A stretch of DNA of 64,000 bases. Origin: Verrucomicrobiota bacterium. Its GTDB lineage: Bacteria; Verrucomicrobiota; Verrucomicrobiia; Verrucomicrobiales; Verrucomicrobiaceae. The stretch spans positions 7,665 to 71,664 of the forward strand of contig JAPLUL010000057.1 in the NCBI GenBank assembly GCA_026397635.1, read 5' to 3'. Positions within the stretch are counted from its first letter, which is position 1; each line of letters begins with the position of its first letter. Both the position numbers and the translations under genes were made by a program. This document shows, piece after piece, positions 21,554 to 60,813 of this stretch. The notes beneath the pieces are model-generated. The model was given only the letters and a program-made list of their open reading frames with translations, did no database searches and had not been told where the DNA came from.

Positions 21554-21817
21554 GGTTGTGGGCAAAAGTGCGAGTGTATTAGCAGAGGGTAGCCATAGAC
21601 GCCACTCAAAGAGCTCTCGTTCAACCTGCTGGTTGTCAATTGTTTCTCCAATCGCCCGGGTTTTCAGGTCAGGGCGGCATCAGAGCTCGTAGGCGCGGTG
21701 CCGTGCCCCTGCGCATGCAGCCGCCGCACGGGGGCTCTCCCTGGCCTCCCTCGGTCACGTTTCGGGTCCAGGAACGGTCCAGCTCCGCAGCGCCAAACTG
21801 GCTCGGGCTGCTGCCGT

Positions 21818-31698: not shown

Positions 31699-31730
31699 AA
31701 GCGGAACCGGGCAACCGGTTCCGCTTTTTT
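31699..31730 (+). terminator. Rho-independent terminator (probably bidirectional)
   Basis: 10-bp stem GCGGAACCGG, GCAA loop, CCGGTTCCGC, then T6; lies between convergent genes. Confidence 0.9.
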
Positions 31731-32824: not shown

Positions 32825-32832
32825 GGGAGGGA

Positions 32833-32930
32833 AAGTTGACGGTTGTTTTCAGAGGGGCGGTGAAGAGCGTTGTTTGGGGTTTGGAAGCCACGGTAAACCA
32901 TCGTCAACAACGGCAAACCACCGTCAACTT
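32833..32930. repeat. 16-bp inverted repeat (1 mismatch) with an internal direct repeat, between the pilT genes
   Basis: AAGTTGACGGTTGTTT (32833-48) versus AAACCACCGTCAACTT (32915-30); GG(T/C)AAACCA(T/C)CGTCAAC occurs twice with a 20-nt period. Confidence 0.8.
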
Positions 32931-33982
32931 CATGAAATGCCCCGCGCCGCGCGGCGGAACTCGGCCTCGTTGCCAGCGGCGGCGATGGCCGTCGCCTCGT
33001 CGATGACACCGGCTCCGAAGGCGGCCACGATGGACTGTAGGAAGGTGCGGCAGTTGGGGTCACCGGCGCGGGTCATGTATTCCGCGATGTCGGACACGGC
33101 ACGCCGTGCGATCCAGTCGCGCACCGCGCCGCCGTTTTGCAGGTGCTCCACCATCAGGGTGAGCCTACCGGTCACATCCGGCACCAGTTTTTGGCACAGC
33201 ACACCGAGGAGCTGGTGGGAGAGTAGATGCAGGCCGATACCGACTTGGTCGGCGGGGAACAAGTTCACAAAGCGCTCCATCGTGTCTGCCACGGTGGCGG
33301 AGTGCATGGAGGCGATGACGAGATGCCCCGTCTCGCAGGCTTGCAGCGCGGTGAAGGCAGTGTCGTGGTCGCGAATTTCCCCCACGAAGATCACATCCGG
33401 CGCTTGGCGCATGGCGGCGCGTAGGCCGCGGGTGAAGCTCGGCGTGTCGCGGCCCACCTCGCGCTGAGTGAACATGCTGCGGTTGTTGGTAAAGATGTAC
33501 TCCACCGGATCTTCGATCGTCACGATGTGGCGGGCCACGTTCGTGTTCATCCAGTGCAGCAGCCCGGCCAGCGTGGTGGATTTTCCCTGGCCGGTCGAGC
33601 CCGTGACCAACACCATGCCGTGCTCCTGCTGGCCCCAGCGGGTCAGCAGCCACTCGGGTGCACCCAGCGCACCCAGAGACGGCATGTCCGTGCGGATGCG
33701 CCGCAGCGTGGCGGCCAGTCTGCCCAGCACCCTGTGCAAATTCACCCGGAAGCGGATGCCGGAGCGCGAGATCATGCCCGTGTCCACATCCATGTCTTTC
33801 AGCGTGTCCCCTCCGCAGATCTGCCAGAGGCCAGCCATGTGCGGCAGTAGCAGTGGTTCGTCGCCAAAGATCATGAGCTGCTCGTTGATCTTCATTCGCG
33901 GCACCTCGCCTTCTTGGAGGAAAATGTCGCTCGCCTGATGCTCTTCGGCGGCTTGCAGGATGTCATCTACGGAAATGGCCAT
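32930..33982 (-). CDS. PilT/PilU-family type IV pilus ATPase
   Basis: GSTGQGKST, TIEDPVE, MRQAPDVIFVGEIRD and ETGHLV. Confidence 0.88.
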   Translation of the reverse strand: MAISVDDILQAAEEHQASDIFLQEGEVPRMKINEQLMIFGDEPLLLPHMAGLWQICGGDTLKDMDVDTGMISRSGIRFRVNLHRVLGRLAATLRRIRTDMPSLGALGAPEWLLTRWGQQEHGMVLVTGSTGQGKSTTLAGLLHWMNTNVARHIVTIEDPVEYIFTNNRSMFTQREVGRDTPSFTRGLRAAMRQAPDVIFVGEIRDHDTAFTALQACETGHLVIASMHSATVADTMERFVNLFPADQVGIGLHLLSHQLLGVLCQKLVPDVTGRLTLMVEHLQNGGAVRDWIARRAVSDIAEYMTRAGDPNCRTFLQSIVAAFGAGVIDEATAIAAAGNEAEFRRAARGIS

Positions 33983-41544: not shown

Positions 41545-41681
41545 GGAGGTGCGTAAGATACGCTTTTTTTAGGTGATCTGCTTTCGCATCTTTCCAGACA
41601 CAAGAAAGCGCAAAATCGGAGCGCAAGCTGCTGATGGAAGTATTGTCACGCGGGTGTAGCCTGCGCGCCCCAAACCCGAAA

Positions 41682-44600
41682 ATGCTTCTGAATTTCCGCC
41701 ATCTCGCCTTGGTCGGCCTTGTCGTCGCCGCTTCCAGCCTTTCTGCTGCTCCCGATTGGAAGCAGGTGGAGTCTTTTCTCGCCGCCAAGTGCTACGAGTG
41801 CCACAACGCGGACAAAATGAAGGGCGATGTCGATTTGAAGCAATTCGCGACCGATCCGAAGCTCGCGGCGGAATTTGAAATCTGGACCAAAGTCAAAGAC
41901 ACCATCGACAACGGCGACATGCCGCCGCGAAAGGCCAAGCAGCTCTCGCCAGACGAGAAAGCCGGCATCACCGGTTGGGTGCAGCATTCGCTCGATCAGC
42001 TCGCTGAGGCCAAATCCGGCGATCCAGGCCCCGTGACCATGCGTCGCCTCACAAATGCCGAGTATGACTACACGATCCGCGACCTCACCGGTCGCGCTTA
42101 TTCACTGGCCAAAGAATTCCAAACCGATGGCGGTGGCGGTGAGGGCTTCACGAACACCGGCGACGTGCTTTTCATGAGCCCGGCGGCCATCGACAAGTAT
42201 TTCGCCGCCGCACGCAAACTCGCCGACTACGCCAGCATCATGCCGGGCACCGGCATCGTGTTTCATCCGAACCGCATCGGCTTGCGCGGGCCGGAGCAGG
42301 TAAAGGCACAAGCGCAGCAGGGCCTCTATGTGTGGTATCAGCAGAAAGCCGCGCCACACTTGCCGAAGGACGACGAAGACATGCGCGAGGCCGATTACAT
42401 GCTGGCTTGTTGGCAGCACAAGCATGCCAAGACGCCGCTCGACCAGCTCGCGAAGGACATGAAGCTCAGCATTCACTTCCTGAGCAATTGGTGGAACCTC
42501 GTGAACAGCGTGGAGCCCCAAAGCCGCTTCCTCGATCTCACCCGCGTGGCTTGGCGTGAACTGCCCGCCGATGAAAAAACGGCGCATGAGCGCATCAAGG
42601 CCATCGAGGTTGACAGACTCTCCTGGAACAATCCCAAACGCCCCGGCAGCGGCTCCCAGCGCCAGCAGCAGGACAGCGACGGCATTCGCCCCTACCCGAT
42701 GCAGACCTCCGTGAAGGATAAATCCCACATCCACCTCTGCTTTGGCGACACCGCCGATGGCAACAAGGGCGACATCGCACTCGTGACCTATATTGAGGTC
42801 AGCGTCGGCAAACAGAAGCTCAACTACCTCCACTGGCTCGACAAAACGCTCGCCGAAAAACGCCAGCAAGCCGCCGTGAACCCGCCGCCGCCAAATCTCG
42901 ACGCCATCAAGGCCCGCCTCGCCGAATTGGAAAAAGCGCGTGCGCTTTACGGCAAGCATCCGCAGCCAGGTCGTAGCATCGAGCCGCAGCTGCTCGCCTT
43001 TGCCGCGCCTCAGGTCGTCACGATGCCGCTGCCGGAGGGTGCGCATTGGTTGAAGGTGGACACGCGTCTCGACATGCAAAACCCCGAGGTCGATGCCGCC
43101 ACCATCCAGTGGGCGCTCAGCACCGACAGGCCGCGCGACGTGACCAAAATCATGCCCGGCGTGGTCACTATTTGGAAACGCGGCACCAAGGCCTCTGGTG
43201 AGACGATGAACGACTTCAACAAGATGAAGACCGCCTTCCCGGACATGTTTGAGCGACGCCTCGAAGAAGTCGCCAGCAATCTCTACCGCGGCGGCAAGCC
43301 CAACTACACGGTTTACTATTTCAGTGACGATCAACTCGGCCAGCTCCTCGGCCAGCAGGACAAGGACATGCTCGTCGCGATGAAGAAAGACTGGGGCTAC
43401 AACGCCACTCCGAACCTCAACAAGCAACAGCAGCAGGAATACGACGGTGCCCTGCTCTGGCACCTGCATCAGTTTGCCCGCAAAGCCTGGCGCAGGCCCA
43501 TCACTGCCGACGAAACCAAAAAACTCGACGCCCTCTACTCGGCTAGCCGCGCGAAGGACCTCGACCGCGAATCCGCTGCACGAGAGGTCCTCGTCTTCAT
43601 CCTCGTCTCGCCGAATTTCCTCTTCAAAGCCGAGACGTTGCCGCCCATCGCCGATGCCAAGACCACCGAGGTGCCGCTGAATGCCCACGAACTCGCCTCA
43701 CGCCTCAGCTACTTCCTGTGGGCTTCCACGCCTGACTGGCAGCTCCGCAAAGCCGCCGATGACGGCAGCCTCATGAAACCCGAAGTGCTCGCCGCGCACA
43801 CCCAGCGCATGCTGCGCGATTCAAAGGCAACCGCGCTCGCCAAAGAGTTCGCCGGCCAGTGGTTGAAGTTCAACGGCTTCGACGAAAAGAGCACCGTCGA
43901 TGAAAAGAAGTTCCCGCAGTTCACCCCCGAGCTGCGAAATGACATGCAGCGCGAGGTCGTGGAGTTCTTCACCCATCTCGTGCGCGATGACCGCAACGTC
44001 TCCGACATCATCAGCAGCGACTACACCTTCATGAATGAGCGCCTCGGCTGGCACTACGGCGTGCCAGGCATTGTCGGGAACGAGTTCCGCGAGGTCAAAG
44101 TCGGCCAGCATCATCGCGGCGGCCTCCTCGGTATGGGCGCCATCTTGACGAAGACCTCCCGCCCGCATCGCACGAGCCCCGTCCTGCGTGGCGACTACCT
44201 TTATCAGGTCGTCCTCGGCTTCAGCAGCCCGCCCCCGCCGCCGAACGTCCCTGAGCTCAAAGAAACCAGCAAACCCTCCTCCCTGCGCGAGGCCCTCATG
44301 CAGCACCGCACCGATTCCGCCTGCGCCGTCTGCCACGAGCGCATCGACGCGCTCGGCTTCGCTTTGGAGAGCTACGACCCCATCGGCCGCTTCCGCCCCA
44401 CCGATGAAGCAGGCGGCAAAATCGACGACACCGGTGAAATGATGGACGGCACCCAATTCACCGGCCTCCCCGGCCTGCGCGACTACCTCAAAAAGAACGA
44501 GCCCCAGTTCCTCACCCAATTCACCCGCAAACTCCTCGGCTACGCTTTGGGACGCCAGACATTGCCCAGCGACAAAAAGCTCCTCCAACAGATGCAGACC

Positions 44601-44705
44601 TCACTGAGGGTTCAAAACGGCCATTTCTCCGCCGCTGTGCTCGAGGTCGTGAAAAGCCGCCAGTTCCTCAATCGACGCGCGGAGCCGCAGGTGGCGGGGA
44701 ATTGA
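41682..44705 (+). CDS. Planctomycete-type cytochrome c protein with DUF1587/1592/1588/1585 domains
   Basis: CYECH and CAVCH haem motifs; RRLTNAEY, ELASRLSYFLW and RTSPVLRG. Confidence 0.92.
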   Translation: MLLNFRHLALVGLVVAASSLSAAPDWKQVESFLAAKCYECHNADKMKGDVDLKQFATDPKLAAEFEIWTKVKDTIDNGDMPPRKAKQLSPDEKAGITGWVQHSLDQLAEAKSGDPGPVTMRRLTNAEYDYTIRDLTGRAYSLAKEFQTDGGGGEGFTNTGDVLFMSPAAIDKYFAAARKLADYASIMPGTGIVFHPNRIGLRGPEQVKAQAQQGLYVWYQQKAAPHLPKDDEDMREADYMLACWQHKHAKTPLDQLAKDMKLSIHFLSNWWNLVNSVEPQSRFLDLTRVAWRELPADEKTAHERIKAIEVDRLSWNNPKRPGSGSQRQQQDSDGIRPYPMQTSVKDKSHIHLCFGDTADGNKGDIALVTYIEVSVGKQKLNYLHWLDKTLAEKRQQAAVNPPPPNLDAIKARLAELEKARALYGKHPQPGRSIEPQLLAFAAPQVVTMPLPEGAHWLKVDTRLDMQNPEVDAATIQWALSTDRPRDVTKIMPGVVTIWKRGTKASGETMNDFNKMKTAFPDMFERRLEEVASNLYRGGKPNYTVYYFSDDQLGQLLGQQDKDMLVAMKKDWGYNATPNLNKQQQQEYDGALLWHLHQFARKAWRRPITADETKKLDALYSASRAKDLDRESAAREVLVFILVSPNFLFKAETLPPIADAKTTEVPLNAHELASRLSYFLWASTPDWQLRKAADDGSLMKPEVLAAHTQRMLRDSKATALAKEFAGQWLKFNGFDEKSTVDEKKFPQFTPELRNDMQREVVEFFTHLVRDDRNVSDIISSDYTFMNERLGWHYGVPGIVGNEFREVKVGQHHRGGLLGMGAILTKTSRPHRTSPVLRGDYLYQVVLGFSSPPPPPNVPELKETSKPSSLREALMQHRTDSACAVCHERIDALGFALESYDPIGRFRPTDEAGGKIDDTGEMMDGTQFTGLPGLRDYLKKNEPQFLTQFTRKLLGYALGRQTLPSDKKLLQQMQTSLRVQNGHFSAAVLEVVKSRQFLNRRAEPQVAGN

Positions 44706-45256: not shown

Positions 45257-48200
45257 ATGCACCTTCGTTCCATCGCCGTTTTTGCTCTTTTGACCGCTAC
45301 CGCTTCTGCGGCGGGGAAGCTGGACTTCAATCGCGACATCCGGCCGATCCTCAGTGACAACTGCTTCGCCTGCCACGGCTTCGACGCAAAGAAACGAAAA
45401 GCGGATTTGCGGCTCGATGTGCCAGAGGGCGCGTTCAACGCGATTGAGGGCGTGTTTCCGATCAAGCCGGGGGATCCCGAGGTGAGTTCGATCATCCAGC
45501 GCATTGTTTCGACGGATGAAGATGAGGTAATGCCGCCGCCGGAAGCTCACAAGAAGGTCACCGCGGCGCAGGTGGAGATTTTGAAGCGCTGGATCAAGGA
45601 GGGCGCGGAGTACATGAAGCACTGGGCGTTTGAAGCGCCGGTGAAGGCTGTGGTGCCGGAGGTGAGAGGTCAGAAGTCAGAGGTTAGAAACCCCATTGAT
45701 GCGTTCATTCAGTCGCGGCTGGTGGCAGAGGGGCTTGCGCATTCACCGGAGGCTTCGAAGGAGGCGCTGATCCGCCGCGTGACGCTCGATCTGACCGGCC
45801 TGCCGCCGATGCTGGCAGAGATCGACGCGTTTCTCGCGGACACGAGCGCGGACGCGTATGAAAAAGTCGTCGCTCGCTTGTTGAAATCAGAACGCTACGG
45901 GGAACACATGGGCCGCTACTGGCTGGACGCGGCTCGCTATGCGGACACGCACGGCCTGCACCTCGACAACGAGCGCAGCATGTGGCCTTACCGCGACTGG
46001 GTAGTGAGCGCGTTCAATGCGAACCTGCCGTATGACCAGTTCACGCTCTGGCAGCTTGCGGGGGATCTATTACCGAATGCCACGACGGAGCAGCAAATCG
46101 CCTCCGGTTTCAATCGCTGCAACGTGACGACGAGCGAGGGCGGTTCGATCAATGAGGAGTTCATCTTCCGCTACGCGGTGGATCGCGCGGACACCACGAT
46201 GGCGGTCTGGCTGGGCCTCACCGCAGGCTGCGCGGTCTGCCACGATCACAAGTTCGATCCCATCTCGCAGAAGGAGTTTTATTCGATGTACGCCTTCTTC
46301 AACAGCGCAGCTGATCCGGCCATGGACGGCAACATCCTGCTCACGCCGCCGATTCTGCGTCTGAGCACCGCCGAGCAGAAGAAACAGATCGCGGAACACG
46401 ACCAAGGCATCGCGGCGGCACAGTCAAAGATCCGCGAGTCGATCTCGAAGCTGAACTACACCGATCCAGCGTCGCTCAATCCGCCGCCGCCGGTGCAGAC
46501 GAGCGAATTGGTGTGGTTTGAGGATGCTTTCCCCACGGGTGCCAAGGTGGAATCGAGTGGCGGGCATCCCACTCAACTTGTGACCAAGGACAAAGACCCT
46601 GTCTTTAGCGGCAACGCGGCGCTGAAACGCACGGCAACTGGCGTGGCGCAGGATTTCTTCGCGGCAGGCGGCAAATACGAGATCCCGCCGAATGGAAAAC
46701 TCAGCGTGCAGTGCTTCATCGACGAGAAAAACCCGCCAAAGGCCATCATGCTGCAATTCCACACCGCAGGGTGGAATCATCGCGCGGTGTGGGGCCAGGA
46801 AGGGGCGATCCCCTACGGTCAGGTGCGCACACCTGAAAAAGTGCAGATGGGAGCACTGCCGGAAGCTGGGAAATGGGTGAAGCTCGAAGTCGCGGCGGAT
46901 CGTCTTGGTTTGAAACCCGGCGCGAAGGTCACGGGCTACGCGTTCACGCAGTTTGGCGGCACGGTTCATTGGGATCATCTGGCGATGAGTTCCCGTGTCG
47001 ATCCTGCGAAGGATCCGCAGTGGTCGTGGAAAGTCTGGGCTGAAAAGAATCAGGGCAAACGCGTGGCCGAGTTGCCCAACGACCTGCAAACCCTCGTGCG
47101 CGGCAAAAAACAGCCCGAGTGGCCAGAAAAGGATGTGACCCGCCTCAAAGAATGGTGGTTTGAAAATGAGTATCAGGGTGCGCGTGAGATCGTGGATGGC
47201 CTCCGGGCTGAAAAACTGGCCTTGGAGGCCCAAAAGAAGGTTCTGGACGATGTGATCCCCGCCACTTTCGTCATGGCCGACTTGCCACAGCCGAGGGACG
47301 CCTTCGTGATGGATCGCGGCCAGTATGACAAGCCCAAGGACAAGGTCACACGCGGCACACCGGCGATTTTCCCGGCCTTGCCCAAGCAGGACCATTACAC
47401 GCGCCTCGATCTCGCCAAGTGGCTCGTCAGTCCGCAGCACCCGCTCACCGCCCGTGTGCAGGCGAATCGACTGTGGCAGCAGTTCTTCGGCACCGGATTG
47501 GTGAAAACGAGCAACGATTTCGGCTCCCAGGGCGAGCCGCCGAGCCACCCCGAACTGCTCGACTGGCTGGCGGTGACCTTCCGCGAGAGCGGCTGGGACA
47601 TGAAAGCGTTCGTGAAGCTGATCGTCACCTCGCACACTTACCGGCAGAGTTCGCAGTTCTCGGTTCACAGTTCGCAGTTAGACCCGGAGAACCGTCTTTT
47701 ATCCCATGGTGCGCGTTTTCGTCTGGATGCCGAGGTGGTGCGTGATTCATCGTTGTTCGTGTCTGGTCTGCTGAGTCCGAAGATCGGCGGGAAAGGTGTG
47801 AAGCCCTATCAGCCGGAAAACATCTGGGAGCCGGTCGGTTTCGGCGGCAGCAACACGCGCAACTACATCCAGGACCACGGTGAATCGCTTTACCGCCGCA
47901 GTTTGTACACCTTCTGGAAGCGCACCGCACCGCCGCCGAACATGACCTCGTTTGATGCGCCGAACCGCGAGAGTTACTGCCTGCGCCGCGAGCGCAGCAA
48001 CACCCCGCTGCAGGCGCTCACGCTCATGAACGACGTACAGTTCTTCGAAGCCTCGCGGAATTTCGCCCAGCGCGTGCTGCAAACTGCCACCAGCACGGAT
48101 GCGCGCATCACCGCGCTGTTCCGCCGCGCCACCGGCCGCTTCCCGAATGCCCAGGAGGCCGAAATCGTCCGCCAGTCTGTGGAAAAACACCTCGCGGCCT

Positions 48201-48346
48201 ACACCGCGAAGCCCGAGGAGGCCAAAAAAGCCATCAGCTACGGCGAATCGAAGCCCGATGAGAAACTCAACCCCGCCGAACTCGCCGCGTGGACGATGGC
48301 GGCAAACTTGGTGATGAATCTCGATGAGGTGGTGACGAAGGGGTAA
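45257..48346 (+). CDS. PSD1/Planctomycete cytochrome C protein (DUF1549 + DUF1553) with a beta-sandwich insert
   Basis: FNRDIRPILSDNCFACHG, NPIDAFI, CAVCHDHKFDPI, PSHPELLDWLA and NTPLQAL. Confidence 0.93.
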   Translation: MHLRSIAVFALLTATASAAGKLDFNRDIRPILSDNCFACHGFDAKKRKADLRLDVPEGAFNAIEGVFPIKPGDPEVSSIIQRIVSTDEDEVMPPPEAHKKVTAAQVEILKRWIKEGAEYMKHWAFEAPVKAVVPEVRGQKSEVRNPIDAFIQSRLVAEGLAHSPEASKEALIRRVTLDLTGLPPMLAEIDAFLADTSADAYEKVVARLLKSERYGEHMGRYWLDAARYADTHGLHLDNERSMWPYRDWVVSAFNANLPYDQFTLWQLAGDLLPNATTEQQIASGFNRCNVTTSEGGSINEEFIFRYAVDRADTTMAVWLGLTAGCAVCHDHKFDPISQKEFYSMYAFFNSAADPAMDGNILLTPPILRLSTAEQKKQIAEHDQGIAAAQSKIRESISKLNYTDPASLNPPPPVQTSELVWFEDAFPTGAKVESSGGHPTQLVTKDKDPVFSGNAALKRTATGVAQDFFAAGGKYEIPPNGKLSVQCFIDEKNPPKAIMLQFHTAGWNHRAVWGQEGAIPYGQVRTPEKVQMGALPEAGKWVKLEVAADRLGLKPGAKVTGYAFTQFGGTVHWDHLAMSSRVDPAKDPQWSWKVWAEKNQGKRVAELPNDLQTLVRGKKQPEWPEKDVTRLKEWWFENEYQGAREIVDGLRAEKLALEAQKKVLDDVIPATFVMADLPQPRDAFVMDRGQYDKPKDKVTRGTPAIFPALPKQDHYTRLDLAKWLVSPQHPLTARVQANRLWQQFFGTGLVKTSNDFGSQGEPPSHPELLDWLAVTFRESGWDMKAFVKLIVTSHTYRQSSQFSVHSSQLDPENRLLSHGARFRLDAEVVRDSSLFVSGLLSPKIGGKGVKPYQPENIWEPVGFGGSNTRNYIQDHGESLYRRSLYTFWKRTAPPPNMTSFDAPNRESYCLRRERSNTPLQALTLMNDVQFFEASRNFAQRVLQTATSTDARITALFRRATGRFPNAQEAEIVRQSVEKHLAAYTAKPEEAKKAISYGESKPDEKLNPAELAAWTMAANLVMNLDEVVTKG
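45659..45691. repeat. In-frame heptamer repeat inside a CDS (GAGGTCA family)
   Basis: GAGGTGA GAGGTCA GAAGTCA GAGGTTA, encoding EVRGQKSEVR. Confidence 0.85.
47647..47681. repeat. In-frame heptamer repeat inside a CDS (CAGTTCG family)
   Basis: GAGTTCG CAGTTCT CGGTTCA CAGTTCG CAGTTAG, encoding SSQFSVHSSQL. Confidence 0.85.
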
Positions 48347-48399: not shown

Positions 48400-48654
48400 A
48401 TGAGAACAACATTGATCATCGAAGATAGCATTTTGGCGAAGGCCAGCAGCTTGACCGGTATCACGGAAAAAACCAAGTTGGTTCACATGGGTTTGGAAGC
48501 TTTGATTCACAGGGAATCCGCCAGGAGGTTGTCTGCGTTGGGTGGTTCCATGCCAGATTTGACTGTGCCTCCGAGGAGGCGTCCCGATGACACCCCTCAC
48601 GGGGTCGCCACGTTAAATTTCGCTGAAGAACCTGCCGTCCATGGTGCTCGCTGA
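48400..48654 (+). CDS. vapB: VapB-family antitoxin (RHH, DUF2191-like)
   Basis: MRTTLIIEDSIL...GITEKTKLVHMGLEALI; overlaps the PIN gene. Confidence 0.85.
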   Translation: MRTTLIIEDSILAKASSLTGITEKTKLVHMGLEALIHRESARRLSALGGSMPDLTVPPRRRPDDTPHGVATLNFAEEPAVHGAR

Positions 48655-49021
48655 TACCAACATCTGGATCAATTTCCTGCGTGGCAAGGATCAGGCGCTG
48701 GGCCAGATGCTCTGGCGGGGCGAGATCATGATGCACTGGATCGTCATCGGTGAACTGGCGACGGGAAACCTCGCCAACCGCGCCCAATTTCTGACCGATT
48801 TGCGTGAGATGCAGATGGTTCAGCCCGCCACGGAACGTGAATCACTGGTGTTGATCGAAAATCGGCGGCTGTATGGCCGTGGTATCGGCTGGAACGACAT
48901 CCAGATTCTGGCCAGTTGCCTGATCAATCATGTGCCGTTCTGGACCAGTGACCGCAGACTGCGGGAAGCCGCCGAGGAACTGGGGTGTGCCTGGCAGGGA
49001 GAGGGTGAGAGCGAAGCTTGA
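48641..49021 (+). CDS. vapC: VapC PIN-domain ribonuclease toxin
   Basis: VLADTNIW, GELATG, GIGWNDIQI and WTSDRRL acidic tetrad. Confidence 0.9.
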   Translation: MVLADTNIWINFLRGKDQALGQMLWRGEIMMHWIVIGELATGNLANRAQFLTDLREMQMVQPATERESLVLIENRRLYGRGIGWNDIQILASCLINHVPFWTSDRRLREAAEELGCAWQGEGESEA

Positions 49022-49795: not shown

Positions 49796-50006
49796 GGGGT
49801 GATTGTTTCGGTTCGAGCCGGTTTTGGCGACTGATTTTTAGCCGGGAAGGGGGGTGGTAAGTCTTTTGTAAAGGCTTTATTGATTATTGCTTCTATATTT
49901 TAAGACTCTAAAATGGGTGTGTTCTCAGATTTGAAAGTCTCTCACGGTCATGTCTTCCCACGCACCACTCCGCCAAATCTCGAAGTCGTCGCAATTGCTG
50001 CGGAAA

Positions 50007-52646
50007 ATGGTCCTTGGGGCGGTTTTTTCGATCGCAGGATTGATGGCGGCGGATCTGAGTTCGGCCCGCCATTTGTATGTCGATCAGTCGCTGCGGCCTG
50101 ATCCGCGGTCGGTGGCCGCCTTTGACCTCAGTGTGCTGCATCCGCAGGCCGAGGTGGACATGGAGCCGGGCCATGCCTTGGGAAACCGCTACCTCGCGCT
50201 GCTCGACACCGTCCACTACCAAACCGGAACACGCGCGGCCATGCTCGCGGTGGAGCGCCAGATGGCCTCGAAGCCCTCCGCCGCAGACCCGCGTGGTCGG
50301 CTGGCTGATCTGGCGCATCCGGAGTGGATTCCCTGGGTGGTGGAGTCGCTGGCCGATCCAGCGGCGAAGAAAGGTTTTGATGGTTTTGTGCTGAGCCTTG
50401 GCGGTGAAGCGGCCTCTCCTGCCTCACGCGAAGCCTTCTTGAAACTCGCCGCCACCCTGCGGCAGCGCTTCCCGGACAAACGCCTGCTGCTGGATCTCCG
50501 CAGCGGCCTCGGCAGCGAGGCTGCTCGCGTCGCCGATGGTTTTCTCGCCTTGGGCGTTTACACGCGTGAAAGCCGCACCGGTGGCCTCGATTGGACCCCC
50601 ATCGCCGACGTAGAGTGCCTCACGCGGCACATTCGCTCAGTGCAGATGCAGGGCATGCGTGTTTTTGCGGTCGATTACGCGCCCGCCAAGGACCGTTCCG
50701 CCGCACGGGAAGCCGCGAAGCGTCTCAGCAGCATCGGTGCGCTGCCGTTCATCACCACGCCAGATCTGAGCGGCGTCAATCTCGGCCCGCTGGAGGAAAT
50801 CACCCGCCGCGTCCTCGTTCTGCATGGCTGGGATGCCAAACACACCGGCCAAGCCGCTCCCGCCGCCGAAAGCACCGCCACGGCCCGCTGCATGCGCCCG
50901 GTGCTTGAATGGCTGGGCTGCGAACTCGACTTCTGCAGCGCGAACGGGCCGGATTTTCTTCCTGCGTCGCATGATTTCAGCGCGGTGGTGCTCGATTCCG
51001 GTCTGGTGCTCAATGACGCGCAGCAGCGCTCGCTTGCCGCCTGGCTGCCCTCGCTGCGGGCCAAAAAAATCCCGCTGCTGCTCACCAGCATGCCCTTCAC
51101 GGATGAAACTGCCCGTCAGCAGGCACTGTTGCACCTCGGTCTCGGTGGCAGCGCGAAGCCCGTCTCCCATCTCGTCAAAGCCAACGTCGCTGGCATCGAC
51201 TCTACGCTCATCGGCGCAGGTTCACGCATTCAGGGTCGTGCGCTCGGTTTTCTGAATCTCACGGCTCCTGCGGACTCGCGCGTCGTGCTCGCCATGCGCG
51301 GGGAGGACGCGCTCGGCACCGAGCACCGCTTTGACCAGGCATTTCTCGCCACGTGGGGCGGGGCCTGCATCGACCCCATGCTCGGCATCAACGGCCCGCA
51401 GGTCGATCTTCCCGCTTTCCTCGCCGCATGGCTCGGTCGTGACCAAAGCGCTCCTGTGCCAGACACCACCACGCGTGATGGTCGCCGTGTCTTTTACAGC
51501 CACATTGAGAGCACAGGCTTCTCCACGCCTTCCACGCTCCCCGGTTTCCCTCTCTGCTCTGAGATCATGCGCGACCGCATCCTCGGGCGCTATCTGCTGC
51601 CCGTCACCGCCTCCGTGTGCGAGGCCGACCTGCGCGGCTGGTTTCCCGGCCAGGAGGCGGAAGCTGCGCCGCGCCTGGAGCACACGGCCCGTAGCATCTT
51701 CGAAATGCTGCAGGTCCAGGCCGCTTCGAACTCTTTTACCCGTCCTTCAACCTGGACGGCAGGCACCGACATCGCCGCCAAGCTCAACGATCGCGCTCAA
51801 ACCGCGCGTCAAGACATGGAACGCGAGATTGCCGGCTCCATGAACTACATCCACCGTCGGCTTCTGCCCGTGGGCAAAGACGTGAGCCTCATGCTGTGGC
51901 CGCAAAACGCCGCGCCCACACCTGAGGCGCTGAGCTTCTGCGAATCCATGCGCATTGAGAACCTGCCCGCCGCTCCCATCGGCACTCCGGCTGCCGTGCT
52001 CGATTCCAAATCAGTCCGTCTGGAGCCGGTCGCTGTGCGCAGCCGCTTTGAGGATGTGCGCACCGAGCCGGGCATCGCCGCGCTCGAAAAAACCCTCGAC
52101 GCCTGCGCCGCCGCGCCACTGCATGCCATGACCGCTGCTGCTTACGCCGCCAGCGTTCGCGACGCGCGGCACACGCGCATCCTGCGAGCGGCTGAAAATC
52201 ACTGGATCATCCTGAATCAGGGCGAATGCCGCACGCTGCGCCTTCCTGCCTCTGTTGGCGTGCCGGACATGACACGGTGCCTTGGCGTTTCTGGCTTCAA
52301 CACGCATGCAGGTCAGCTTTACATCCACACCCTGGGTGGAGCACGCACCGAGCTGGTTTTGACCCGGGGAAAAGCCGCGCGTCACATCCACCTCGTAGAA
52401 AGCAGTGCTCCGGTCGAGTTCATGGATCTGTCCTCCCGCCGCGCCACCTTCCACGTGCGTGATTTGCGTCCCGTCGAGGTGGTCTTCGGTGGTTTCGAGC
52501 CGCGCGGCCAGTGCGCCTATCTCGAAAACGGCCGTCCTTACACGGTGAATGCCGACGCCAGCGGTATCGTGCGTCTCGAACTCGTCTGCCGCGCTACCGT
52601 CTCCATCCAATCGCTCCCGCCCTCCGTCGAGGCCGCGATGCGCTAA
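50007..52646 (+). CDS. pelA: PelA homologue (glycoside hydrolase + deacetylase architecture) with degenerate catalytic sites
   Basis: PDTTTRDGRRVFYSHIESTGF, ASNSFTRP and RTLRLPASVGVPDMTRCLGVSG line up with the PelA segments as I recall them; signal peptide present. Confidence 0.8.
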   Translation: MVLGAVFSIAGLMAADLSSARHLYVDQSLRPDPRSVAAFDLSVLHPQAEVDMEPGHALGNRYLALLDTVHYQTGTRAAMLAVERQMASKPSAADPRGRLADLAHPEWIPWVVESLADPAAKKGFDGFVLSLGGEAASPASREAFLKLAATLRQRFPDKRLLLDLRSGLGSEAARVADGFLALGVYTRESRTGGLDWTPIADVECLTRHIRSVQMQGMRVFAVDYAPAKDRSAAREAAKRLSSIGALPFITTPDLSGVNLGPLEEITRRVLVLHGWDAKHTGQAAPAAESTATARCMRPVLEWLGCELDFCSANGPDFLPASHDFSAVVLDSGLVLNDAQQRSLAAWLPSLRAKKIPLLLTSMPFTDETARQQALLHLGLGGSAKPVSHLVKANVAGIDSTLIGAGSRIQGRALGFLNLTAPADSRVVLAMRGEDALGTEHRFDQAFLATWGGACIDPMLGINGPQVDLPAFLAAWLGRDQSAPVPDTTTRDGRRVFYSHIESTGFSTPSTLPGFPLCSEIMRDRILGRYLLPVTASVCEADLRGWFPGQEAEAAPRLEHTARSIFEMLQVQAASNSFTRPSTWTAGTDIAAKLNDRAQTARQDMEREIAGSMNYIHRRLLPVGKDVSLMLWPQNAAPTPEALSFCESMRIENLPAAPIGTPAAVLDSKSVRLEPVAVRSRFEDVRTEPGIAALEKTLDACAAAPLHAMTAAAYAASVRDARHTRILRAAENHWIILNQGECRTLRLPASVGVPDMTRCLGVSGFNTHAGQLYIHTLGGARTELVLTRGKAARHIHLVESSAPVEFMDLSSRRATFHVRDLRPVEVVFGGFEPRGQCAYLENGRPYTVNADASGIVRLELVCRATVSIQSLPPSVEAAMR

Positions 52647-52668: not shown

Positions 52669-54284
52669 ATGTCCCGTAGCTCTCGCCAAGTTCTGTTGCT
52701 GATCACGTCCTACACGGCGCTCGCCGTCGCGTGGGGCTGGCGCTTGCATGCCAATGACGCGCCGCCGAAGAACAACGAGACGCTGCTAGACACCACCCGC
52801 GCCGAGATCATCGACCGCCTCGCCACCGCGCCTGCAGACCTCCAGCCGCCTGCCCTTTTGCAACTTGCGCTGCTGCCAGAGAAAGAAATCCTCGCTTTGC
52901 ATGAATGGCGCAGCAAGGCCCCATCCACACTCCCTGCCCGCTGAACACCGCGCTCGTCTTTACTGAACTCGAACGTGCTGACGCGCCGCTCATTGAGGAC
53001 ACGCGCCTGCTCATCTCCGCCGCCGGAGATCGGCTCGAAGAGCCGCACAAGCTCGCCGCTCTCGCACGTCTGGCCTCACAAGCTGCCGCCAACCACGAAC
53101 CCAACCTCGCCCTCGAAATTCATCAACGCGCCTGTGAGTCTGAGATCGCCACCTGGGAAAACGTGCTCGCCTTGGCCGATGCCGCGCGTGTGGCCCGCCG
53201 TCCGGCGGCCGCGTTGAAAGTCGTCAACGCCTGGCTTGCCCCCACCGCATCGCGGCTTGAAGCCAAGCGGCGTGATGACGCGCTCGATTTGCAGACCGCG
53301 CTCCTGCTCGAAGGCACGCGCTACGCCGAAGCCAGCCGCATCACGCTCGATGATCTGCGCTCCTTGAAGCTCAACGATGCCATCCCGCCGCGCCTCATGC
53401 AGCGTGCTTGGCTCGCCACGCATGCCGCTGGCGAGTCCGCCGAGCTCCTGCCATGGATCGAGCGGCATCTGCGCACCTTCCCAGATCATCAGTTCAGCGT
53501 CGAAGACATCGCCGCTGGAAAAACCGTCTCCGCTGACTATCTGCGCTGGCTCGGCGAGTCCGCCGCCATCGCCGACCGCCAACACCAGACCAGCATCGCC
53601 TGCGAGGGCTTCTTCCGCCTCGCCGCGGCTGGTGAAACCCGCGTGATGGCCCGTTTGCACGCGCTCGCCACGCAGATCGGTCGCGGCCACGAGCTCGCGC
53701 GGCTTTTCACCGCCTTGCAGCGCCGCATCTCCATTCTCGAACTCGCCCAGGCGCTCGCTGAAGGCAATGCGCCTGCTCCCGCTCGCGATCTTCTCGCCGC
53801 ACATCTCAAAACCACGCCCAACAACCGCGCCGGCTGGCATTTGCTCACCGAGATCGACGTGATGCTGCGTGGTGCCGCCTCCGCGCCCCAGCTGTGGGAA
53901 GGATTCCTCAAACGCTTCCCTGACGACGTTCCCGCCTTGAAGCGCCTCGCCCAGCTACAGATCAACAGCGCCCAGCACCTGCAGGCCCTCCGCACCTTGC
54001 TGCGCATCTCCAGCGTGGATCTCGACGAAGCCACGCTACGCCAGATCACCGCTCTTGCGGTTCAGCTCGACGATCTCACCACCGCCGTCCGCAGCCAGCA
54101 GCTCATCGTGCAAGGCTCCAAGCAGCCCGCCGTCAGCGATGTCCTCACCCTCGCCGCTTTGACACGTCAAAGCTCCGATGCCGATTCGCTGGCCGTGCTG
54201 GCTGAAACCGTCGCTCAACTGCCCGCTCCGGCCGCTTTCCAGCAGTCACTCATCATTCCCACCACCGCCGTGCAGGCGAAGTAA
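52669..54284 (+). CDS. All-helical TPR-like protein (PelB-position), split by a -1 frameshift near 52935-52940
   Basis: The frame-1 ORF 52669-52944 has an N-terminal hydrophobic segment and overlaps the frame-3 ORF to 54284. Adding one C at GCCCG gives continuous ...STLPAPLNTAL. Confidence 0.65.
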
Positions 54285-56969: not shown

Positions 56970-58049
56970 TCACTTTTCATCTTTGCCGCCGGGCTTGATT
57001 ACGGCTGGCTGGTCAAAGCCGAGCCTCTCACCGGCAAAGCGCAGGCATTTCACGATGTTTTCCTCCTCAAACACCAGCGCCGCCTCGGTGCTGAGGCCAG
57101 CGACCTTGGGCAGCTTCGCCGCTTGGCGCTCGCGCACGAGATTGAGCGTGCGGACGAGCTCGGTGCCGGGTTTGTCCGGGAAAGTGGCCCAGTAGCCGGG
57201 TTTGAGGCAGGGAATGTCCAGCGGGTCACGCGTGATCATCTCCAGGTGGTAGTCCATCTGCGGGTTGTGCTTCTCAAACAGCGCGAACATGCGCGGCAGA
57301 TCGAGAATACCCTCTCCCAGCGGCACTTCGGAGAGCAGGAAGCCCTGCGGCATCTCCTGCACGGCCATGTCCTTGATGTGGGTGGTCACGGCGAAGGGGG
57401 CGAGTGTCTCGACGACCTGCATCGGGTCTTCGAGCAGCGCGATGCTGTTGCCGGTATCGACACACGCCCCGATGTGTGGGCTGCTGAGGCGCCCGAGCAC
57501 CTCCGCCAGCTCGGCGGCATGAAAATCTTTGTGATTTTCGATGCCAATCTTCACGCGCAGCCGTTTTGCGACGGGTTCGGCGAGTTGCATGGACTTGATC
57601 GCGCTGTCTTTGAAGTGCTTGAACTCCGCCAGGCTGGAAAACAGCTCGTAGCGTCGGCCACCCGTCGCGCTGCGGTAGATCGTGGCCCCGGCCTCCTTGC
57701 CGAGGCTTAGCTCGTTTTCAAAGCGGGCCACGTCATTCTCATTCTTCGGCAGTGTGATGCTGCCTTCGAGCTTCAAGCCATAGGACTCGCGCGTGTCACG
57801 AACTTGGCCCGCAAAGCCTGCCGTCCAGCCGCCGACCATGGTCTGCAAAGCCCCCACGCCGAGTCCGCGCACATGATCCAGCACGTCTAGCGCGTGCATG
57901 AAGGGCGGGTTCGTGAGGCTGGAGTATTTCCCCTGCCAGCGCTTCCAGTAGGAGTGGATCACGATGCCCATCCGCTTCCCTTGCATCGCCGCAGGCAGTG
58001 GCATGGCGGCCAGGGCAGAGGCTGAGGTCAGAAGATTGCGGCGGGTCAT
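56970..58049 (-). CDS. Tat-exported xylose isomerase-like TIM barrel protein
   Basis: MTRRNLL Tat motif; IENHKD, DTGN and HIKD. Confidence 0.87.
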   Translation of the reverse strand: MTRRNLLTSASALAAMPLPAAMQGKRMGIVIHSYWKRWQGKYSSLTNPPFMHALDVLDHVRGLGVGALQTMVGGWTAGFAGQVRDTRESYGLKLEGSITLPKNENDVARFENELSLGKEAGATIYRSATGGRRYELFSSLAEFKHFKDSAIKSMQLAEPVAKRLRVKIGIENHKDFHAAELAEVLGRLSSPHIGACVDTGNSIALLEDPMQVVETLAPFAVTTHIKDMAVQEMPQGFLLSEVPLGEGILDLPRMFALFEKHNPQMDYHLEMITRDPLDIPCLKPGYWATFPDKPGTELVRTLNLVRERQAAKLPKVAGLSTEAALVFEEENIVKCLRFAGERLGFDQPAVIKPGGKDEK

Positions 58050-58093
58050 GATGAGGCAAGAAACGCGTGCGTGCGTGTCATCATTCAATCTCC

Positions 58094-60238
58094 TCACTCC
58101 TGTTCCTGCTTTGCCAGCGTGTGGGCAAAGGGGCTGGTGGAGGCGAGATTGTACTGACGGATAGCGACGGACCAGAAAGCCGCCAGTTCGTGGTCGGCGG
58201 CGCTCCACAGGCGGTAATGCAGGTTGGTGACGGTGTCCGTGTCATGCATCAGCGCCTTCAATTCTTGCGCACTGAGCGTCTGCGGCCCCTGGGTGATGAG
58301 GCGGTGGCCGATTTCATCCAGATAACTGCGAGAGACGTCGATGGTGCGGCGGCGGCGCAGCAGGCTGACGTGGAGGCCGTTGACATACGGGTCGAGGCAG
58401 ACCTGCATGAGGCCGTAGTGGCGCTCCAACTCAGGTGGGAGCTGGATGCGGTCTTTAATTTCCTCCAGGTTCTGCTGCATGGTCTTCAGCACGGTGGGAG
58501 GATCGTACTCCTCCGGCGTGAGGAAGACGCCGAGACGTTTGCCGCTGCGCGCACCCGAGACGAGGGCGGCGACGAGGATCGAAACGACCAGCGAGAACAA
58601 AATCGGGCTGATCCAGACGAGAAACTCCCAGGAGACAAACCAACCGAGCACCGCCCAAGCCACCCCCAGCAGTGTGACGCTGGCGAAGGTAATGATGATC
58701 TCGCTCCAATTGATCCCACCGTCGATTTTCCGGCGCTGCGTGACCCAACTGACGCTTTTCCCGATGAGCGTGTAGATGACAAATCGCGAGTGGAAGATCA
58801 TGAGCACGGGGGCCATGAGCGTGAACACCACGGTGTCGAGCAAACTGCTGACAAAGGTGAGCAGCCGCAGCTTCAGCGGCTTGAACAGACGGCCCGTGAT
58901 GACCTCGTCGAGCAGGATGACGGTCTTCGGCAGGAAGATGAGCATGGCGGTGAGGCCAAGGAGAATCTGCTCGGCCAAGATGGCCTGCGGCTGCTGATGC
59001 GCCGTGGGCGTGGCGGCGAGATACGTCGCCAGCACGAGGAAGAAGAACCACAGCAGCGAGCTGACATAGCTGAGGATGCCGTGGAGGAAATTCACGCGGC
59101 TCATCGGGTGCCAGCCCTTCGCAAACACGAGCCAAAGATGCTGGATGTTGCCCTGGCACCAGCGGCGGTCGCGTTTGAGCATATCGACCAGTGTGGGCGG
59201 CCCTTCCTCGTAGCTGCCACGCGTGGTGGGCAGCAACCGCACAGCGTAACCGGCCTTCCGCATCAAAGCGGCCTCCACGAAGTCGTGGCTCAAGATGTGA
59301 CCGCCGAAAGGTGCGTTGGCAGGCAGCGGCGGTAGTGCGCAGTGCTCAATGAACGGCGCGAGGCGCAGGATGGCGTTGTGGCCCCAGAAATTGGCCTCGC
59401 CGCACTGCCAGTAGTCGAGTCCGGCCATGAAAGGCGGTCCGTAAAGCGCTTGCGCGAACTGCATCACGCGGCCCAGCAGCGTGTCCGCTGCGATCTGCTT
59501 CGGAAAGGTCTGCACGATGCCGATGCCGGGATTTTTCTCCATGATGCGCACCATGCTGGTGAGCAAGGAACCGGACATGAGGCTATCGGCATCCAGCACG
59601 ACCATGTAACGGTAGCGGCGGCCCCAGCGGCGGCAGAAGTCGCTGACGTTGCCGCTCTTGCGGTTGATCTGCTTGCGGCGCTTGCGGTAAAAGATTCTGC
59701 CAAAGGCGTTGAGCTGGCGGCAGAGCTCCAGCCAGGCGGTTTCCTCCTCGATCCACTGGCTGGCCTTGTCCGAGTCGCTGAGAATGAAAAAGTCGAAGTT
59801 TTTCGACTGCCCGGTGGCCTCCAAGGAGAGGTAAATCGAGCGCAGCCCCTCAAACACGCGTGTCACGTCTTCATTGAAGACCGGCATGACGATGGCGGTG
59901 CTGGCGGTGATCGGCTGCTCGTAATCTTCCGCGTTCAGCGTCAGCCAGAGATTGAGCGGATCAGGCTTCGGGCGGTTCATCAGCCACACGCCGAAAAGCG
60001 CGGTCCAGAAGCCGACATTGAGCTGGTAATAAAGCGGGATGAAAACCAGCAGCAGCGCCCACTCCGCGATGCGCATGCCGTTTTCTGAGAGGAAAATGAA
60101 CGAGAGCCAAGCACCGACGATGGTGCCTAGGCCGACGAGCGAGAAAAACGTGGCCCGCCGCGTGCGCGAGATGCGCTTCGGCGGCATGCCGGCGGTCATC
60201 GCGATGTTCGCAGTCTGGCTGCCGATGGGTGCGCTCAT
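58094..60238 (-). CDS. opgH: Glucans biosynthesis glucosyltransferase H
   Basis: MPVFNED, ILSDS, RKSGNVSDF, VLDADS, FWGHNAI, ILSHDFVEA and RDRRWCQGNIQH. Confidence 0.95.
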   Translation of the reverse strand: MSAPIGSQTANIAMTAGMPPKRISRTRRATFFSLVGLGTIVGAWLSFIFLSENGMRIAEWALLLVFIPLYYQLNVGFWTALFGVWLMNRPKPDPLNLWLTLNAEDYEQPITASTAIVMPVFNEDVTRVFEGLRSIYLSLEATGQSKNFDFFILSDSDKASQWIEEETAWLELCRQLNAFGRIFYRKRRKQINRKSGNVSDFCRRWGRRYRYMVVLDADSLMSGSLLTSMVRIMEKNPGIGIVQTFPKQIAADTLLGRVMQFAQALYGPPFMAGLDYWQCGEANFWGHNAILRLAPFIEHCALPPLPANAPFGGHILSHDFVEAALMRKAGYAVRLLPTTRGSYEEGPPTLVDMLKRDRRWCQGNIQHLWLVFAKGWHPMSRVNFLHGILSYVSSLLWFFFLVLATYLAATPTAHQQPQAILAEQILLGLTAMLIFLPKTVILLDEVITGRLFKPLKLRLLTFVSSLLDTVVFTLMAPVLMIFHSRFVIYTLIGKSVSWVTQRRKIDGGINWSEIIITFASVTLLGVAWAVLGWFVSWEFLVWISPILFSLVVSILVAALVSGARSGKRLGVFLTPEEYDPPTVLKTMQQNLEEIKDRIQLPPELERHYGLMQVCLDPYVNGLHVSLLRRRRTIDVSRSYLDEIGHRLITQGPQTLSAQELKALMHDTDTVTNLHYRLWSAADHELAAFWSVAIRQYNLASTSPFAHTLAKQEQE

Positions 60239-60813
60239 GCGAAGAGGGAGTAAAGGTAGCCCAGCACGCTGAACACGATCACAAACAGCACTGAGTAGCG
60301 CAGGATGGGATGGCGGCCGAGGCGGTCGAAGGTGTCCTCCGCCACATCGGGGATGAGGCCGAGGTCAATGTCACGCGGCGTCATTTTACTCACCTGCATG
60401 CCCGGGCCGGAGGTGCGCAGGGCAGAGCGCATGGCTTCGGCCATGTCATTCGGCATGTTTTTCTCATCCAGAAAGAACTGCGGCCAGCGGGCAGGGCCGC
60501 CCGCGAGGTGGAAGCCCAGCCGCCCCGTGGCCTCTAGCTGCGCCTCGCTCAAGTTGAGGTCGCTGTAGATCGTCCCCAGCCACTCCCTCAGCATCAGCCG
60601 CGCTTGCTCGATGGCATGCGCCGTGGGCGTGCGTGTGGGGTCTTTCGCATGCGCCTCGGCGGCCTTGCGCAGCGTTTCCAGGATGAGCTGCGTGCGGCGG
60701 ATGCGGTTGTGCAGCTGGTAAGAGCGAAAATAGTCGGCGAGGCGCGCATACGCCTCGTTCCATGCTTCCTCAGTGCCCGTCGCCGGCGCGAATTGGATAT
60801 TGACTGCTTCCAT
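60235..60813 (-). CDS. Hypothetical protein with a C-terminal TM, translationally coupled to opgH
   Basis: The stop overlaps the opgH start; C-terminal hydrophobic helix. Confidence 0.75.
   Translation of the reverse strand: MEAVNIQFAPATGTEEAWNEAYARLADYFRSYQLHNRIRRTQLILETLRKAAEAHAKDPTRTPTAHAIEQARLMLREWLGTIYSDLNLSEAQLEATGRLGFHLAGGPARWPQFFLDEKNMPNDMAEAMRSALRTSGPGMQVSKMTPRDIDLGLIPDVAEDTFDRLGRHPILRYSVLFVIVFSVLGYLYSLFA

Follow-up and report, generated by a model that had tools for sequence, protein, structure and literature searches.

The window considered here, i.e. the whole 64,000-nucleotide stretch of contig JAPLUL010000057.1 of a Verrucomicrobiota bacterium (positions 7,665 to 71,664 of the forward strand), carries a gene for a homologue of PelA, the hydrolase/deacetylase of the Pel exopolysaccharide system, in which eight of the nine catalytic residues are changed, and, directly downstream, a gene for a protein with tetratricopeptide repeats (TPRs). 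The homology to PelA, the fold, the residue losses, the purifying selection in all domains and the conserved pairing of the two genes are established. The interpretation favored here, with a probability of roughly 0.6, is that the catalytically inactive ('dead') PelA and the TPR protein are a conserved Pel-derived pair that would work without catalysis, as a periplasmic scaffold and/or a glycan binder.

The PelA-like gene is a single, long, uninterrupted open reading frame (ORF; 49950–52646, forward strand) of 898 amino acids (aa). Scans of its product against Pfam and NCBIfam produced no significant match, to GH114 or any other family, so that most database copies of this protein are labeled 'hypothetical protein' and the relationship to PelA is visible only through a search of the PDB sequences. 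There, phmmer finds the full-length PelA of Pseudomonas thermotolerans (PtPelA; 9CGY, E = 1.1e-36) and the hydrolase domain of Pseudomonas aeruginosa PelA (PaPelA; 5TCB/5TSY, E ~ 1e-10), and a profile of 56 family members aligns with residues 4–889 of 9CGY, i.e. end to end (E = 4.7e-125). The AlphaFold2 model of the window protein, built on the family alignment, has a predicted local distance difference test score (pLDDT) of 87.8 and a predicted template modeling score (pTM) of 0.84. When this model is compared with the PDB using Foldseek, the best match is again 9CGY (~920 columns, E = 2.9e-55, template modeling scores 0.66/0.72), followed by the PelA hydrolase domain (TMt 0.77 versus 5TCB/5TSY) and then by GH191/GH114 barrels. 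The profile and the fold both recover the four-domain order of PelA, namely, hydrolase barrel, mixed alpha/beta domain, deacetylase and beta-rich domain. An earlier reading of the DNA made without database searches (hereafter, the sequence-only reading) had recognized a PelA homologue from its architecture and motifs, and phmmer, profile, model and Foldseek concur on a full-length, four-domain homologue. The same reading described an intact ORF of 879 codons with a signal peptide. The ORF is indeed intact but is probably longer: 50007 is an in-frame internal ATG, from which 879 aa would be translated, and 49950 is the likelier true start, because the hydrophobic stretch MVLGAVFSIAGLMAA is then preceded by a basic n-region (KSSQLLRK) and because the closest orthologues are also 898 aa long. 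This N-terminus would be an export signal; in the AlphaFold2 model, a lone low-confidence helix spans residues 15–31, ahead of the first domain.

The catalytic machinery of PelA is well defined. In PaPelA, the catalytic carboxylates of the hydrolase are D160 and E218, and the CE21 deacetylase employs H526, which activates the base, D528 as the base, D530, H600 and H604 as the metal ligands, E723, and H761 as the acid; alanine mutants of the equivalents of the base and metal-triad residues in PtPelA lack esterase activity (PMC12022489). The nine sites were compared in an alignment of PtPelA, the window protein and 85 relatives, and in HMMER and MAFFT alignments; the PtPelA sequence was rebuilt from HMMER output, with the catalytic residues confirmed at the expected positions. 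Across these sites, the series D E H D D H H E H of PaPelA becomes S L H E T N R - R in the window protein, so that eight of the nine are changed (Table 1). HMMER and MAFFT reproduce all four motif comparisons of the sequence-only reading, those of the hydrolase included, and neither catalytic position of the barrel has an acidic replacement. For the deacetylase, the sequence-only reading held that all four residues of the two motifs it compared were changed, which is accurate for D530, H600 and H604, all of which are lost, but overstated for D528: this base position is Glu in the window protein and Asp in most orthologues, i.e. the change is conservative. Two further losses had escaped that reading, the replacement of H761 by R699 and the deletion of the MT3/MT4 block.

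Table 1. Coordinates of the PelA-like gene, its domains and catalytic sites (PaPelA numbering first), and of the partner gene in the window.
Feature	Position	Strand	Evidence
PelA-like pseudoenzyme gene	49950..52646	+	ORF, 9CGY matches, AlphaFold2, Foldseek
Signal-peptide-like segment, aa 1-39: charged n-region, hydrophobic core, ...SSA/RH	49950..50066	+	read from sequence
Hydrolase-like GH166-type TIM-barrel, aa ~40-290	50067..50819	+	alignment to 5TCB/5TSY, Foldseek
D160, hydrolase carboxylate -> S149	50394-50396	+	GLFLDTLD -> GFVLSLGG
E218, hydrolase carboxylate -> L201	50550-50552	+	AVES -> LALG
Mixed alpha/beta domain, aa ~291-505	50820..51464	+	profile alignment to 9CGY
Deacetylase-like CE21-type domain, aa ~506-742, degenerate active site	51465..52175	+	HMMER, MAFFT, profile alignments
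H526, activates base -> H518, sole kept site among the nine	MT1 51501-51521	+	HIDGDGF -> HIESTGF
D528, catalytic base -> E520	MT1 51501-51521	+	HIDGDGF -> HIESTGF
D530, metal ligand -> T522	MT1 51501-51521	+	HIDGDGF -> HIESTGF
H600, metal ligand -> N594	MT2 SNSFTRP 51726-51746	+	ASHTFSHP -> ASNSFTRP
H604, metal ligand -> R598	MT2 SNSFTRP 51726-51746	+	ASHTFSHP -> ASNSFTRP
E723, MT4 partner of acid -> deleted	near 51978-52004	+	gap in alignment
H761, catalytic acid (MT5) -> R699	52044-52046	+	YYHFYS -> RSRFED
C-terminal beta-rich domain, aa ~743-898	52176..52646	+	profile alignment to 9CGY
Partner gene: N-terminal transmembrane helix + TPRs	52669..54284	+	tblastn, BLASTP, TPR Pfam matches

The loss of catalytic residues is not a peculiarity of one genome. 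A protein search with the window sequence returned 115 clusters, and 138 relatives were found with one genome taken per GTDB species; the locus counts, the groups and the flanks given here rest on the best 80 of these 138 (78 loci), with 10-kb flanks. All 78 loci belong to Verrucomicrobiota, mostly to Prosthecobacter, Brevifollis and metagenome-assembled genomes (MAGs) of Verrucomicrobiaceae from fresh water. The relatives closest to the window protein form the query clade (~37 loci, 58–94% identity), which is dead and carries the deletion; in an intermediate clade (6 loci, 49–53% identity), the residues are replaced and the block is not deleted; a second dead clade, C2 (~15 loci, 35–37% identity), includes the cultured Brevifollis gellanilyticus; and 14 loci encode active PelAs that keep all seven deacetylase residues. 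Altogether, dead orthologues are present in ~60 species-level Verrucomicrobiaceae genomes, with identity to the window protein down to ~35%. In a neighbor-joining tree rooted on PtPelA and built without support values, all dead sequences group together, as the sister clade of the active verrucomicrobial PelAs. The simplest history is, then, a single old inactivation.

Within the query clade, the S149/L201 state, with both GH166 carboxylates gone, is universal, and a deletion of ~45 residues removes the MT3/MT4 block (NGGNT...NQNE...) including E723. What appears to be uniformly lost across the dead orthologues is the metal triad together with the catalytic acid, and not the base. Sequence, profile and structure-level alignments recover no catalytic residues at shifted positions in the query clade. 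A rescue of E218 by a shift of register was considered and rejected for the window protein: a Glu lies one or two residues past this column in some C2 proteins, but in none of the query clade.

The dead proteins evolve under constraint. The ratio of nonsynonymous to synonymous substitution rates (dN/dS; Nei-Gojobori, unsaturated pairs) lies between 0.07 and 0.24 overall and, domain by domain, is under 0.4 for all pairs. In the close pairs that involve the window sequence itself, the beta-rich domain has the lowest values of all domains (0.05–0.09). The constraint can also be gleaned from the retention of the sites that are conserved in at least 95% of the active PelAs (75% for the barrel). The query clade keeps all 14 of these sites in the beta-rich domain, 11 of the 14 in the alpha/beta domain and 24 of the 32 in the barrel, where the catalytic carboxylate pair is among the losses; in the deacetylase domain, 42 of the 83 are kept, with the losses concentrated in the motifs MT1–MT5. 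Such a pattern is typical of a pseudoenzyme whose scaffold is preserved, and the features by which pseudoenzymes are recognized, namely, loss of essential residues, purifying selection and retention of the predicted fold, are found together. Selection rather than decay, which the sequence-only reading had deduced from the intact ORF, is borne out by the intact dead copies in ~60 genomes and more than 100 protein clusters, the low dN/dS and the large-scale retention of non-catalytic conserved residues.

The dead PelA does not travel alone. Only two families are common to all clades, that of PelA itself (74 loci) and that of the partner gene, which lies directly downstream in 68 of the 74. The N-terminus of the partner protein reads MSRSSRQVLLLITSYTALAVAWGW... 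and provides a transmembrane helix, after which comes the TPR array; the protein consists of 556–579 aa in the query and intermediate clades, ~475 aa in C2 and 716–771 aa beside the active PelAs. The partners from the dead and active sides are homologous (BLASTP E-values of 1e-12 to 1e-29). Because the partner is homologous to the TPR gene that occupies the pelB slot of the active verrucomicrobial clusters, it can be taken as homologous to, though shorter than, the N-terminal half of the split verrucomicrobial PelB. The PelB porin (PF24604) was sought in the partner and is absent.

The organization of an active cluster is best seen in locus L055 (9944–22863), which encodes a PelA with a GH114 match, a 733-aa TPR protein and a 903-aa TPR protein with a weak match to the PelB barrel, and then a GAF protein (PelD-like), a 249-aa ORF that matches no family, PelF (DUF3492 and GT4) and PelG. 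This locus is a pel cluster in which PelB is split over two genes. The two-gene form of PelB, with ~730 aa (transmembrane helix and TPRs) and ~905 aa (TPRs and a weak barrel match), is found in L055, L005, L007, L008, L076 and L082, and in these six loci no PelC is recognizable between PelB and the PelD-like gene. Paralogues are seen in two MAGs, JANOAR01 (L069/L077) and JANPIW01 (L056/L084), each with two PelA-plus-TPR loci in which the deacetylase sites are intact; in one copy of each, a hydrolase residue is altered (D160 to E or E218 to D) and the loop is shortened, which suggests a stepwise loss of the hydrolase function in a paralogue.

The dead genes appear to be uncoupled from the synthesis of Pel. 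The porin half of PelB (~908 aa) is present in 12 of the 14 active loci, whereas no dead locus has it. When PelC–PelG of the canonical cluster L006 were used as tblastn queries, PelF and PelG were found only beside L055, L076 and L082, all of them active; the 64 kb of the window and the 10-kb flanks of the dead loci yielded no match to any of the five. Nor does the window contain a second PelA; the rest of it consists of unrelated housekeeping genes. A search with verrucomicrobial PelG yielded 453 relatives, of which the top 120 reach down to 47% identity: these 120 include the contigs of the active loci L076 and L082 but none of the dead-copy contigs of 2.345, 1.64, 2.66, 3.42 and 6.17 Mb. 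Among the 78 loci, dead and active copies never share an assembly, and two assemblies hold two active-type copies. These distributions point, indirectly, to mutual exclusion of the dead PelA and the Pel system in genomes. The proposal of the sequence-only reading that the protein serves a Pel-like polymer is accordingly left without support, with neither pelD–pelG nor an active pelA near any dead copy.

Under the favored interpretation, the window gene would encode a periplasm-targeted descendant of the four-domain PelA in which both catalytic centers have been dismantled and the wall of the active site partly deleted. Across Verrucomicrobiaceae, it would form a two-gene module with a TPR protein anchored in the inner membrane and derived from the N-terminal half of a split PelB. 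This pair would have arisen by one old inactivation within verrucomicrobial pel clusters, losing the porin half of PelB and its adjacency to pelD, pelE, pelF and pelG. PaPelA has been modeled on TPRs 9–19 of PelB, with contacts through the deacetylase and alpha/beta domains, the latter predicted to touch TPRs 13–19 (PMC12022489). Because the modeled contact runs through these domains, the dead PelA is likely to dock still on its TPR partner via the deacetylase-like and alpha/beta domains. Once docked, it may act non-catalytically, as a scaffold and/or glycan-binding subunit of a complex tethered to the inner membrane; this proposal follows from the fact that selection kept the docking domains, the beta-rich domain and the TPR neighbor but not catalysis, the porin or the synthase genes. 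A more far-reaching version can be put forward tentatively: the dead PelA and the PelB-N-like protein might form a self-standing envelope machine in genomes devoid of Pel, with the former catalytic grooves now binding a ligand or hosting a new, metal-independent chemistry, in the service of some other glycan or envelope process. If true, this would be the first module for the modification and export of a synthase-dependent exopolysaccharide that survives as a non-catalytic device after the loss of the synthase.

Several observations weigh against the scaffold or binder interpretation. First, in most of the query clade the His-x-Asp dyad of MT1 persists and an Arg at the former metal-His position is invariant, or nearly so. 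Second, the similarity of the partner to canonical proteobacterial PelB is at the generic TPR level (hhalign, 84% on the TPR stretch), a comparison of the partner profile with the PDB retrieves generic TPR proteins only, without PelB (5WFT) among the matches, and BLASTP of the verrucomicrobial PelB-C-like gene against canonical PelB is insignificant; because none of the three comparisons gave a specific match to PelB, the PelB-N assignment draws on position and on homology within Verrucomicrobiota. Third, the partner gene of the window is frameshifted (52669–52944, 91 aa, and 52905–54284, 459 aa): compared with the 94%-identical relative L009, a 40-nucleotide (nt) gap at 52909/52910 splits off the transmembrane anchor. 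The partner is intact in all other loci, and the gap is probably an assembly artefact, because contigs of the public run that matches best stop at 52903 and resume at 52910, whereas the 40 nt are present in two related runs. Fourth, copies of the dead gene are interrupted in four MAGs (L022, L042, L050 and L052, 61–84% identical to the window protein) of the ~45 query-clade copies, by one in-frame stop and by one, one and three frameshifts, with Ns in one of the contigs; these are either assembly errors or recent losses. Fifth, RNA matches amount to one 246-nt contig (window 51987–52232) at a depth of ~4, from a metatranscriptome labeled mosquito metagenome, where carry-over of DNA is possible. 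Finally, the absence of pelDEFG and of an active pelA is indirect, as it derives from the 10-kb flanks, the best 80 of 138 relatives and the top 120 of 453 PelG relatives.

The retained residues raise the possibility that the protein is a neofunctionalized enzyme, with relocated or different catalytic residues, a metal-independent mechanism and a substrate other than Pel. Both 'dead' domains are under purifying selection, the query clade keeps H518 (97%) and D/E520 and has a nearly invariant R598 at the metal position of H604, and several polar residues are invariant specifically in the dead clade (D182, which is N in active PelAs, H635, C557 and R313). Enzymes with a CE4-like fold that require no metal exist, e.g. 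PuuE allantoinase. However, the MT1 dyad is missing (T-x-S or Q-x-T/L in its place) from the sister dead clades, which share both origin and partner with the query clade, so that a function shared by all of them cannot depend on it. Moreover, the catalytic acid is gone along with ~45 residues of the active-site block, neither barrel position has been refilled with an acidic residue, and the clade-specific conserved sites number only 34 and form no recognizable motif. An enzyme of this kind is, on balance, unlikely.

Similarly improbable is that the protein assists or regulates, as a subunit, a Pel or Pel-like system whose genes lie elsewhere in the same genome, for instance, by vying with active PelA for PelB as a decoy or by binding the polymer. 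The family does include active pel clusters with PelF and PelG, and paralogy occurs, given the genomes with two PelA-plus-TPR loci described above; but none of the genomes among the 78 loci combines a dead with an active copy, none of the top 120 PelG matches falls on the 1.6–6.2-Mb contigs that carry dead copies, and the dead module comes with a PelB-N-like partner of its own rather than a shared one. A functionless relic, i.e. a decaying pair of pseudogenes that happens to be still undisrupted, is strongly disfavored and highly improbable: the four interrupted copies, the frameshifted partner in the window and the minimal evidence of expression fit it, but the low dN/dS across all domains, the intact ORFs in lineages that have diverged to ~35% identity, the selective retention of non-catalytic conserved residues and the confident fold prediction do not, and each interruption is an isolated event in a MAG, in one case on a contig containing Ns; the partner frameshift coincides with contig breaks and is missing from related runs.

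Neighboring genes in the window offer no additional partner. On the reverse strand (56970–60813), genes for an AP_endonuc_2 protein (xylose-isomerase-like TIM barrel), a 714-aa GT2 glycosyltransferase (Glyco_trans_2_3) and a 192-aa ORF lie together, an arrangement that is kept in the 94%-identical relative L009 and not in more distant dead-PelA loci. A functional link of the GT2 and AP_endonuc_2 genes to the dead PelA was rejected, their synteny being limited to close relatives and absent from L001, L003 and L004. Upstream of the PelA-like gene, on the forward strand, are two genes for planctomycete-type cytochrome-c proteins of ~1025 aa each, one with PSCyt1/PSCyt3 and PSD2–PSD5 domains (41634–44705) and the other with PSCyt1/PSCyt2 and PSD1 (45257–48346), the latter syntenic with the dead PelA only in the query clade. 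Just upstream of the PelA-like gene is one for a PIN-domain protein (48641–49021, forward strand), a candidate VapC-like toxin, that also precedes the orthologue in L001/L002. A link of the PIN and PSCyt/PSD genes to the dead PelA was likewise rejected, as they co-occur with it only within the query clade. Elsewhere, a 1374-aa protein (17441–21565, reverse strand) combines fn3, a cyclophilin-type peptidyl-prolyl isomerase (PPIase), five He_PIG Ig-like repeats and three MBG domains, an unusual surface-protein architecture, and two tandem genes for T2SSE-type secretion ATPases (31730–33982, reverse strand) adjoin genes for MFS and MacB/FtsX-type transporters.

Compared with the PelAs of P. aeruginosa and P. 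thermotolerans (9CGY; GH166 and CE21), the window protein has the same domain order, including the deacetylase domain with its (beta/alpha)7 fold (PMC12022489), a putative N-terminal export signal and a transmembrane-anchored TPR protein encoded next to it; it differs in that identity is ~21–26% and in that the gene lies outside a pelABCDEFG operon. The closest active relatives, the PelAs of Verrucomicrobiaceae such as L055, L076 and L082, are 31–37% identical to it and, unlike it, have every one of the nine catalytic residues, with a TPR partner that has ~170 aa more and precedes the porin half of PelB of ~900 aa. PelB itself comprises a transmembrane helix, 19 TPRs, an alpha-rich region and a beta-barrel porin. 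The partner shares the transmembrane helix, the TPRs and the position of pelB but has neither the alpha-rich nor the porin part (~560 versus 1193 aa). Lineage-specific remodeling of PelA is also known from Bacillus cereus PelA_DA and from other single-domain PelA relatives; these proteins are reported to have lost domains and to remain active deacetylases within pel operons, whereas the type found in the window keeps the domains and loses the chemistry (PMC13254593, PMC7112168). Judged by the catalytic residues and the operon context that define PelA, the window protein should not be filed as a functional one.

In the 2025 study of PelA, the active sites are reported to be conserved in full-length homologues across phyla, and every homologue with a checkable context lies in a pel operon (PMC12022489). 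The supplementary Foldseek list of 'PelA homologs' in the same study includes, without remark and with the operon given as 'Unknown', Brevifollis gellanilyticus A0A512MC17 and Prosthecobacter fusiformis A0A4R7RJL4 (PMC12022489); the visible part of the A0A4R7RJL4 sequence contains the dead-clade motif GFDGFVLTGLET. Dead-clade proteins are, therefore, already listed in the literature and are unrecognized as dead. The statement of the sequence-only reading that no catalytically dead PelA has been described holds insofar as literature searches for one found nothing relevant, with the caveat that these two members of the wider clade had been tabulated without a flag.

The dead clade, which is large and has so far been found only in Verrucomicrobiota, is a clear counter-example to the reported conservation of active sites and pel operons (PMC12022489), with a scaffold of ~900 residues and the TPR neighbor kept and the chemistry and the operon lost. 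It also carries a warning for genome annotation: some sources already name dead-clade proteins PelA, and this label on such genes should not be taken to imply a capacity for Pel biofilms. The clade offers a natural separation-of-function variant for the non-catalytic roles of PelA, i.e. docking on PelB, guidance of the polymer and whatever is done by the unexplained beta-rich and alpha/beta domains. Since the wider dead clade includes the cultured carriers Brevifollis gellanilyticus and Prosthecobacter fusiformis, the question of what a PelA does without its chemistry is directly testable.

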